A stretch of DNA of 10,537 nt, taken from the IMG/VR virus record IMGVR_UViG_2671180608_000012; one strand, 5' to 3'. Position numbers and translations under genes: made by a program. Positions 9,611-10,537 of the stretch are shown here, one piece after another. Under the pieces are notes generated by a model, which saw only the letters and a program-made list of their open reading frames with translations, was not told the origin of the DNA and ran no database searches. This DNA comes from a virus. Lineage: Duplodnaviria; Heunggongvirae; Uroviricota; Caudoviricetes. Numbering within the stretch: the stretch's first letter is position 1; each line of letters opens with the position of its first letter.

Positions 9611-9750
9611 TCTGTCTAGTTGATTCGGTAGAATCTACCTCATGATGTATACGTGTTTAGTACCCGTCACACCAGCTATGTGACCCCCTTGGCAAAAAAG
9701 CCAAATATCAGCTACATCCATGTAACTATTCAGTAACTTATTTAGCAAGT

Positions 9751-9831
9751 CTGTAATAAGTTGCTCTAGAGATTCCTAACTCTTCCTGAATCTGCAACCT
9801 CGTCTTACCTTGTGAAATAAGCGTCTGTACA
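9751..9831. repeat. 81-bp duplicate of the recombinase 3' end (78/81 identical to 9875-9955), next to an N-run
   Basis: Three mismatches against 9875-9955; two are synonymous in the recombinase frame and one gives T/M. This copy continues into ...ATYYRLAK and a stop at 9738-9740. Confidence 0.7.
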
Positions 9832-10413
9832 NNNNNNNNNNNNNNNNNNNNNNNNNNNNNNNNNNNNNNNNNNNCTGTAATAAGTTGCTCTAGAGATTCC
9901 TAGCTCTTCCTGAATCTGCAACCTCGTTTTACCTTGTGAAATAAGCATCTGTACAGCCTCTGAAGAAGCTTTTACAGGTCTTCCCATATGTACCCCTTCA
10001 GCTTTAGCACGTTCAATACCAGCCTTTCTACGCTCTGCTATCAAGCTTCTTTCAAGCTGTGCCAACGTTGACATAATGCCTAACATTGCTTCACCCATAG
10101 CGCTTGATAAGTCAAATCCTTCTCTAAGGCTGATAACTGTCACACCTTTAGCCTGTAGCGCTTTAACCGTTGATAACACATCAATTGTGTCACGTCCAAG
10201 ACGGTCTACAGCTACCACAACTACGGTGTCACCTTCTCGTGCATAAGCTAACAAACTGCTGAAACCGTTTCTTAAAGAAGCTTTGACAGAACCACTGACA
10301 GCTTCATCAGCGAACCATTTAGCAATGTTGTACCCTGCCTCTTCAATTTGCATTTGCTGGTTAGTGATGGATTGGTCATCTGTACTCACCCTGCAATATC
10401 CAAGTATCGCCAT
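9805..10413 (-). CDS. Small serine recombinase (resolvase/invertase family); 3' end interrupted by the N-run
   Basis: Start placed at MAILGYCRVSTDDQ (ATG 10411-10413, AAGGGA RBS), the conserved serine-recombinase N-terminus with catalytic Ser. Also DRLGRD and C-terminal HTH ...GISRATYY. The stop at 9805 is a frame artefact of the gap; collapsing gap plus duplicate gives a 183-aa protein ending RLAK with stop at 9738-9740. Confidence 0.75.
   Translation of the reverse strand: MAILGYCRVSTDDQSITNQQMQIEEAGYNIAKWFADEAVSGSVKASLRNGFSSLLAYAREGDTVVVVAVDRLGRDTIDVLSTVKALQAKGVTVISLREGFDLSSAMGEAMLGIMSTLAQLERSLIAERRKAGIERAKAEGVHMGRPVKASSEAVQMLISQGKTRLQIQEELGISRATYYXXXXXXXXXXXXXXXCTDAYFTR
9832..9874. other. 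Run of 43 N (assembly gap or masked bases) inside the recombinase 3' region
   Basis: Directly visible in the sequence. Confidence 1.
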
Positions 10414-10426
10414 AATGTTCCCCTTA

Positions 10427-10537
10427 GAAGTCTCAAAAGTTAGTCTCATAAGTTTAGCTGTCTCATAATCCAAAAACAACCTTTTGAGACTACTTGAGGG
10501 TGCATTCTACCGTTACGTTGAAAGTGTCTCAAAAGGA
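10427..10537. promoter_or_regulatory. Res-like array of GTCTCA(A/T)AA repeats immediately upstream of the recombinase gene
   Basis: GTCTCA at 10429, 10443, 10460 and 10526 (direct) and TGAGAC at 10485 (inverted); CCTTTTGAGAC (10480-10490) and GTCTCAAAAGG (10526-10536) form an inverted pair. The array runs to the window edge. Confidence 0.5.

Follow-up and report, generated by a model that had tools for sequence, protein, structure and literature searches.

The gene at the right-hand end of the viral record IMGVR_UViG_2671180608_000012 (IMG/VR; Duplodnaviria, Heunggongvirae, Uroviricota, Caudoviricetes) encodes a small serine recombinase and is preceded by a cluster of short repeats, which raises the question of whether the pair serves to resolve multimers, to invert a DNA segment, to exchange DNA between elements or mainly to control expression of the gene itself. 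The record, referred to here as the window, comprises 10,537 nucleotides of one strand and is the entire contig CXBW01000156.1 (10,537 bp; assembly GCA_001254115.1). The original prediction, made from the letters of the window, described a resolvase of about 183 residues with an autoregulated, multi-subsite res site and assigned it to multimer or cointegrate resolution. From the analysis reported here, we regard it as probable that the protein is an autoregulated resolvase acting at a 122 bp res site, and that the system resolves multimers of an excised, replicating, integrative island of roughly 12 kb that is related to phages.

Recombinase, array and promoter

By its sequence, the protein belongs to the small serine recombinases and is catalytically intact. 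The RVSTDDQ and DRLGRD motifs and the C-terminal helix–turn–helix on which the original prediction relied agree with the Pfam assignments, Resolvase (PF00239; E = 1.1e-41, residues 4-141) and HTH_7 (PF02796; E = 4.5e-5, residues 144-180, with a score of 23.9 bits against a cut-off of 23.8), and with an intact Escherichia coli gene of 552 bp that encodes 183 residues (locus L004, 13987-14538). The helix–turn–helix is preceded by a GR minor-groove arm, an MGRP motif is present and the length of 183 residues is that of the family (about 180-200 residues). An HMMER alignment shows a complete set of catalytic residues, with equivalents of gamma-delta resolvase Y6, R8, S10, D36, R45, D67, R68, R71, E118, E124 and R125.

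In the window the gene has an apparent length of 675 bp, which a scaffold artefact inflates. Inside it, 43 consecutive N (9832-9874) are bordered on either side by an 81-nucleotide duplicate (9751-9831 and 9875-9955; three differences between the copies), an arrangement that apparently arose when two copies of the recombinase gene of one genome were joined during scaffolding. Removal of the artefact leaves a product of 183 residues with the C-terminal end ATYYRLAK. One copy of the duplicate matches the E. coli MRE162 allele and the other the allele of Shigella sonnei (loci L022 and L024).

The closest relative of solved structure is gamma-delta resolvase (3e-30). The best match in the PDB is a gamma-delta/Hin chimera (2GM4), because residues 96-105 of the recombinase are Hin-like. 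The recombinase scored 102 bits with gamma-delta resolvase, 99 with Tn3 resolvase, 79-81 with Gin and 52 with Sin; its identity is about 40% to gamma-delta resolvase and 37-41% to phage invertases, and the protein is roughly equidistant from resolvases and invertases.

Of the eight copies of the hexamer GTCTCA in the window, five lie within the last 108 bases. The clustered copies, at 10430, 10443, 10460 and 10526 on the plus strand and at 10485 on the minus strand, span 10430-10531 and correspond to the five direct and inverted GTCTCA/TGAGAC motifs described upstream of the gene in the original prediction. Given the frequency of the motif in the rest of the window (0.031 per 108 bp), at least five copies have a Poisson probability of 2e-10; when any hexamer at any place was allowed, a cluster of at least five in 110 bp was found in eight of 300 Markov-simulated windows. 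The true repeat unit is the 12-mer GTCTCAWAAGNN. A position-weight matrix (PWM) was built from the half-sites and used with a threshold of 14 bits to scan the window and nine related loci (about 200 kb in total); scores of at least 14 bits were confined to the array.

The array has a total length of 122 bp and consists, in the direction of the gene, of site I, a 35 bp spacer, site II, a 5 bp spacer and site III. Site I (GTCTTAAAAGGA-CT-TCCTTTTGAGAC) is a 12-2-12 inverted repeat of 26 bp, site II (GTCTCAAAAGGT-TGTTTTT-GGATTATGAGAC) is a 12-7-12 inverted repeat of 31 bp and site III (AACTTATGAGAC-T-AACTTTTGAGAC) is formed by two head-to-tail half-sites over 25 bp. Automatic detection of inverted repeats was misled by A/T tracts at site II and was replaced by anchoring on the half-site cores. 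Downstream of site III, 5 nucleotides lead to the ribosome-binding site AAGGGG and a further 5 nucleotides to the ATG (Table 1).

The contig stops within site I, directly after the gene-proximal arm, so that the central dinucleotide and the distal arm fall outside the window. The array had been expected to continue past this edge, and it does: the E. coli MRE162 sequence, which is 98.8% identical over 662 bp, supplies the missing part. On the plus strand the full site reads GTCTCAAAAGGA-AG-TCCTTTTAAGAC (L004 14651-14676), a 26 bp inverted repeat in which 11 of the 12 arm positions are symmetric. The complete 26 bp site is present in L004, where the array occupies 14555-14676, and in all of the other loci compared.

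A promoter scan of 900 bp around the array gave TTGAGA-17-TAGAAT as the top sigma-70 match, with ten of 12 positions in agreement. The -35 hexamer (10532-10527, minus strand) lies within the gene-proximal arm of site I and the -10 hexamer (10509-10504) lies in the spacer between sites I and II. Sites II and III would then be located in the predicted transcribed leader, between the -35 hexamer and the ribosome-binding site. The proposed overlap of the array with the promoter and ribosome-binding region is supported by this promoter match, with the -35 hexamer inside site I and sites II and III reaching to the ribosome-binding site.

Table 1. Features of the window. Coordinates are those of the 10,537-nucleotide stretch; ORF, open reading frame.
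Feature	Coordinates	Strand	Remarks
Small serine recombinase gene	9738-10413	minus	ATG 10413-10411, stop 9740-9738; Pfam Resolvase and HTH_7
Ribosome-binding site AAGGGG	10419-10424	minus	Read from the sequence; 5 nucleotides from ATG; purine-rich across homologous loci
Site III	10430-10454	minus	12-mers 10430-10441 and 10443-10454; 13 bp period; PWM 18.2 and 16.0 bits
Site II	10460-10490	none	GTCTCATAATCC aaaaaca ACCTTTTGAGAC; from GTCTCA positions and PWM
Spacer between sites I and II	10491-10525	minus	35 bp; contains -10 hexamer and conserved block ACGGTAGAATGCACC
Site I, gene-proximal arm	10526-10537	none	GTCTCAAAAGGA; includes -35 hexamer
Dam-family N6-adenine methyltransferase	8491-9153	minus	PF05869; C-terminal resolvase-type HTH_7 with GRP arm
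Replication-initiator-like gene	7238-8127	minus	HTH_36; PHROG 'replication initiation'; split into ORFs of 129 and 124 residues
IS3-family element	3178-4334		orfA 4032-4334, orfB 3178-3996
Tape-measure gene	13-1290	minus	Cut off by contig start

Conservation of the array across loci

Twelve loci from eight genera were compared: Escherichia (three E. coli variants and E. albertii), Shigella (S. sonnei), Klebsiella, Enterobacter (two loci), Raoultella, Citrobacter, Yersinia and Aeromonas. The identity of the proteins is 54-98%. The layout of the array is common to all 12 loci and its spacing is near-constant, while the flanking sequence diverges; the multi-subsite layout of the original prediction is supported, with sites of 26, 31 and 25 bp. 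Counted from the ATG, the half-sites have their outer ends at -138/-113, -77/-47, -30 and -17, and the offset of the array from the ATG differs by up to 8 bp among the loci. The spacer between sites I and II measures 34 or 35 bp. Site II spans 31 bp in ten of the 12 loci, 32 bp in Yersinia and, by eye, about 29 bp in E. asburiae (L016), and the 13 bp period of site III is seen in nine. The automated scan missed some half-sites in the three most distant loci, where these were identified by eye.

The half-site core differs by lineage, being GTCTCA in most, GTATCA in E. asburiae and GGCTCA in Aeromonas, and the central dinucleotide of site I is CT, AG, TC or GC. E. coli and Klebsiella share the block ACGGTAGAATGCACC in the spacer, and Raoultella and Citrobacter have it in almost the same form. 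Drift of the half-sites alongside the protein, within diverged flanks, is the pattern that would be expected of a protein co-evolving with its binding sites. Among the E. coli variants, identity reaches 99-100% in the array and 93-98% in the recombinase's C-terminal DNA-binding third, but only about 60-70% in the catalytic domain. A mosaic gene is likewise seen when L004 13987-14697 is compared with L005 and L002 (E. coli/E. albertii variants), where the array and the C-terminal third are 93-100% identical and the catalytic domain about 60-70%. The mosaic pattern suggests that a segment of the catalytic domain was replaced.

Host island and proposed function

The gene is present in 184 of 5426 complete E. 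coli genomes (about 3%), always on the chromosome, with no occurrence on plasmids. It lies at one end of an island of roughly 12 kb that has a large serine recombinase at its other end and, in its interior, baseplate-like and tape-measure genes, unknown genes, a replication-initiator-like gene and a methyltransferase gene of the Dam family. The recombinase gene is the first in a co-directional string that includes the methyltransferase and replication-initiator genes. Islands are inserted between tonB and yciI or inside yecE (L026 15116-28008), and an identical recombinase protein (WP_000996136.1) is found in both types. Comparison with the empty site places the junction of the tonB–yciI island at about L004 15054/15055, 378 bp beyond site I. 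In the other genera the homologue resides in similarly small islands whose integrase is of either the large serine or the tyrosine type; usually they also encode a primase or a replication initiator, and the variable cargo comprises AbiTii, CBASS/TIR or DarTG.

The transposase gene tnpA is absent from the window and from every locus examined. No homologue from a sequenced phage is more than 42% identical to the recombinase, and megablast and blastn searches against phages gave no match. A plasmid search returned a single Klebsiella record type, which also carries chromosomal genes: in this 'plasmid', p2B30155 (L001, NZ_CP074582.1), the homologue is accompanied by chromosomal sodB, purR, punR and punC beside a prophage, and the record may be a misassembled or excised chromosomal segment.

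Since the islands carry an integrase of their own and usually a replication initiator or primase, a separate function in multimer resolution makes sense. The original prediction had left multimer and cointegrate resolution side by side; of the two, resolution of multimers of the excised island is the likelier role, because the host is an integrative phage-like island of roughly 12 kb and not a plasmid or a Tn3-type transposon. The earlier description is further refined by the Hin-like site I and the head-to-tail site III. In the proposed mechanism, dimers of the recombinase would bind three subsites, namely site I, which would be the crossover site with its asymmetric 2 bp centre, as well as site II and site III. 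In a dimer or multimer of the excised island, two directly repeated copies of res would synapse by way of the accessory sites; site I would be cut at the central dinucleotide and the half-sites would rotate by 180 degrees and rejoin to give monomers. Occupancy of the same subsites would repress the recombinase promoter, with its -35 hexamer in site I, and with both site II and site III inside the leader.

A number of observations weigh against this proposal. Residues R2, R32, K54 and E56 of the 2-3' regulatory interface of gamma-delta resolvase are replaced by A, K, Y and R in the recombinase, so that a Tn3-style synaptosome cannot simply be assumed. Site I, with 26 bp in a 12-2-12 arrangement and an asymmetric centre, is typical of Hin and Gin and unlike the 28 bp site I of Tn3, and the top PHROG family of the recombinase is labelled 'DNA invertase'. 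Several E. coli chromosomes hold two identical arrays with no evident rearrangement. The island of the window is decayed, with an insertion sequence (IS) insertion, a truncated tape-measure gene and a split replication gene, and the module of recombinase and array may therefore be idle in that strain. The structural elements of an autoregulated resolvase that were originally described are supported by the data above; DNA binding, crossover position, resolution outcome and repression are what we infer for this recombinase family from sequence.

Some of these features would suit a Hin/Gin/Cin/Pin-type DNA invertase, or what is left of such an enzyme, with site I as one of two inverted crossover sites whose intervening segment has been lost or lies at a distance. 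To the length and non-palindromic centre of site I and the PHROG label can be added the frequent annotation of homologues as 'DNA invertase' in source databases, the gamma-delta/Hin chimera as best PDB match and the resemblance of the half-site GTCTCAAAAGGA to hix/gix half-sites such as TTATCAAAAACC. We nevertheless consider an invertase highly unlikely. Flanking inverted crossover sites had been named in the original prediction as the feature that would point to one, but at nine loci, two of them complete islands, a scan of 8-20 kb on each side showed a single array in each island and neither an inverted partner nor any other half-site pair of at least 14 bits. Sites II and III add four conserved half-sites for which invertase systems offer no equivalent, the short distance between the array and the end of the E. 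coli island is too small for a segment that could be inverted, and tail-fibre genes are missing beside the E. coli array. It is also conceivable, but improbable, that the protein is now mainly a repressor and the array an operator of its own promoter, possibly also of the island operon downstream, and that recombination has lost its relevance. The sites do span the -35 hexamer and the whole leader up to the ribosome-binding site, the gene heads a co-directional string, the system persists in decayed, IS-ridden islands and two identical arrays can share one chromosome. Yet the complete set of catalytic residues is kept across protein identities of 54-98%, the near-perfect 12-2-12 crossover-type site together with three differently spaced sites exceeds what an operator needs, and high-scoring half-sites are missing from the other island promoters in the PWM scan. 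Repression and recombination coexist in Tn3-type systems, so the two roles are not exclusive.

A different role for site I, as a point of exchange or fusion with another island or a helper phage that has a similar site, or of module swapping between related islands, rather than of resolution of the element's own multimers, is suggested by S. sonnei. Other S. sonnei contigs with an identical methyltransferase have the recombinase and array joined either to yciI, with a CT centre, or to yecE, with an AG centre (L022 4980-5080, L024 1050-1186); site I contains GTCTTAAAAGGA-CT in the yciI form and GTCTCATAAGGA-AG in the yecE form. From the gene as far as the site I centre the two forms are virtually identical, and past it they diverge. 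The window contig ends at the same point, and from this end together with the N gap between two alleles, the window genome probably has two recombinase copies. The identity break fits the centre of site I as a recombination junction, but it could equally be the end point of gene conversion, and the two S. sonnei haplotypes differ in their centre, which a simple crossover cannot yield. The islands are mosaic (identity is about 91% in the recombinase region and 68% in the methyltransferase gene, while the integrase genes cannot be aligned), and a 2026 survey ties small serine recombinases statistically to variable defence cargo, the role of those beside defence genes being stated as unknown (PMC13552941); AbiTii, CBASS/TIR and DarTG are found beside the homologues studied here. 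Against this, exact matches to site I among 2.9 million viral contigs occur only beside the same recombinase (two matches). Module exchange at res is moreover a known by-product in Tn3-family elements and not a distinct mechanism, and exchange in place of multimer resolution seems to us very improbable. As an addition to resolution, it is a less remote but still rather unlikely idea that the site I centre is a natural module junction, at which the recombinase would also promote exchange between related islands resident in one cell, or between their circular forms, and shuffle the integrase and attachment modules against those for replication and cargo. If true, this would explain mechanistically why small serine recombinases are linked with variable defence cargo.

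Two further ideas about the central dinucleotide were weakened and not adopted. That it tracks the integration site is countered by the presence of the CT type in yecE islands as well, and that it keeps co-resident islands orthogonal by at least seven E. coli genomes that hold two arrays of the CT type. In E. coli O111 (L005 16927-21330, L007), a remnant of the tonB–yciI island consisting of the recombinase and array is fused through IS1203 to the ompW lambdoid prophage, and the yciC–tonB genes between them are missing; a role of the recombinase as integrase of a lambdoid prophage in this strain, to which the place of the gene had seemed to point, was rejected on these grounds. A lone array fragment in strain TB354 was likewise rejected as a recombination product, since it had been cut short by an IS3-family insertion.

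As regards the other features of the window, the IS3-family element separates two diverged copies of a module that consists of two genes and has no known function (1679-3150 and 4386-5873; paralogues of 236/203 and 81/148 residues). E. coli MRE162 has only one copy of the module, and the gene for the 236-residue protein is annotated there as 'transposase' without support from Pfam or PHROG. When the replication-initiator-like gene is compared with the single ORF of 319 residues in MRE162, the N-terminal part is 36% identical and the C-terminal part 64%; the split gene is either a pseudogene or a different allele. The HTH_7 domain of the methyltransferase is 33% identical to the DNA-binding domain of the recombinase, and the methyltransferase may be one that is directed to particular sites. 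Between the two genes, the intergenic region (9154-9737) exceeds that of E. coli by about 240 bp and contains a second run of N (about 9382-9408) flanked by a repeated 45-nucleotide stretch, ttttataaaaattttcaga[t/c]tctgaaaagttactgtacaga. The hexamer GAATCT is enriched in the window, with 20 copies observed and 7.5 expected, four of them at 9541-9636. Rfam searches of the window and of the interval between the recombinase gene and yciI found nothing. The recognizable virion genes of the island are the tape-measure and baseplate-like genes (window 13-1290; L004 5118-8184), and a Raoultella relative has a lone major-capsid gene (Phage_cap_E). The islands, of roughly 10-12 kb, may be phage satellites or heavily reduced prophages.

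Comparison with known systems

With multimer resolution as the preferred reading, the nearest relatives of the system are the resolvases of Tn3 and gamma-delta. Their res site is 114 bp long, with three dimer sites of 28, 34 and 25 bp and a promoter inside res (PMC2602789; PMC9943657). Resolvases of this type recombine directly repeated res copies in supercoiled DNA and do not carry out inversion. The likeness extends to a 183-residue protein that is about 40% identical, with shared catalytic residues, and to three dimer-sized subsites upstream of the gene (26, 31 and 25 bp here), with the 5 bp gap between sites II and III in common and the promoter match likewise inside the array. There are also clear differences. 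Site I of Tn3 has 28 bp and a palindromic AT centre, whereas the site here has 26 bp and a CT, AG, TC or GC centre. The spacer between sites I and II is 22 bp in Tn3/gamma-delta and 34-35 bp here, which adds about one helical turn to the distance between the site centres. All three Tn3/gamma-delta sites are inverted repeats, in contrast to the head-to-tail site III, and neither the half-site sequence nor the 2-3' interface residues are shared. Finally, Tn3-family elements have tnpA and terminal inverted repeats, whereas here there is no tnpA, there are no transposon ends and the host is an integrative island.

In layout and setting, a precedent is found in SGI1, an integrative island that replicates after excision and encodes a small serine resolvase with a three-subsite res; the Res/res system has been shown experimentally to remove island multimers (PMC12217951). 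Both systems combine a small serine resolvase, a three-subsite res upstream of its gene and an integrative island. The res of SGI1, however, aligns with that of Tn3/gamma-delta (28-22-30-2-25 bp), and SGI1 is mobilized by plasmids.

For a regulatory site with head-to-tail half-sites, such as site III, site II of Sin is the precedent (PMC2428073), and the likeness extends to beta. The res of Sin consists of two recombinase sites and an HU/IHF site, whereas here an additional inverted site II separates the crossover site from the head-to-tail one; inspection of the array spacer by eye revealed no IHF consensus, and the protein similarity to Sin is weak (52 bits).

The Hin, Gin, Cin and Pin invertases resemble the present system in their 12-2-12 crossover site with a non-palindromic centre, in the A-tract of the half-site and in their proteins, which are 37-41% identical, with Hin-like residues at 96-105. 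Invertases have two inverted crossover sites around an invertible segment, whereas here one site per element was found within the 8-20 kb scanned on each side, with no invertible segment and no tail-fibre genes. Invertases also use an enhancer bound by Fis, which lies in the 5' part of the recombinase gene; conserved accessory sites stand upstream of the gene here.

Literature searches for the island or the site found no description of either. In many islands of bacteria, small serine recombinases are neighbours of defence genes and other cargo. The recombinase family described here offers a concrete case with a defined 122 bp site, a predicted crossover dinucleotide, a predicted promoter overlap and natural variants of both the centre and the half-sites. 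The family also occurs in several other Enterobacterales and could show how the architecture of accessory sites sets the outcome of serine recombination; it could in addition provide compact orthogonal recombinase/site pairs for genome engineering. The system is of a kind that is already well known, and its predicted res joins a crossover site like that of Hin to a three-site plan like that of Tn3 and a head-to-tail site like that of Sin.

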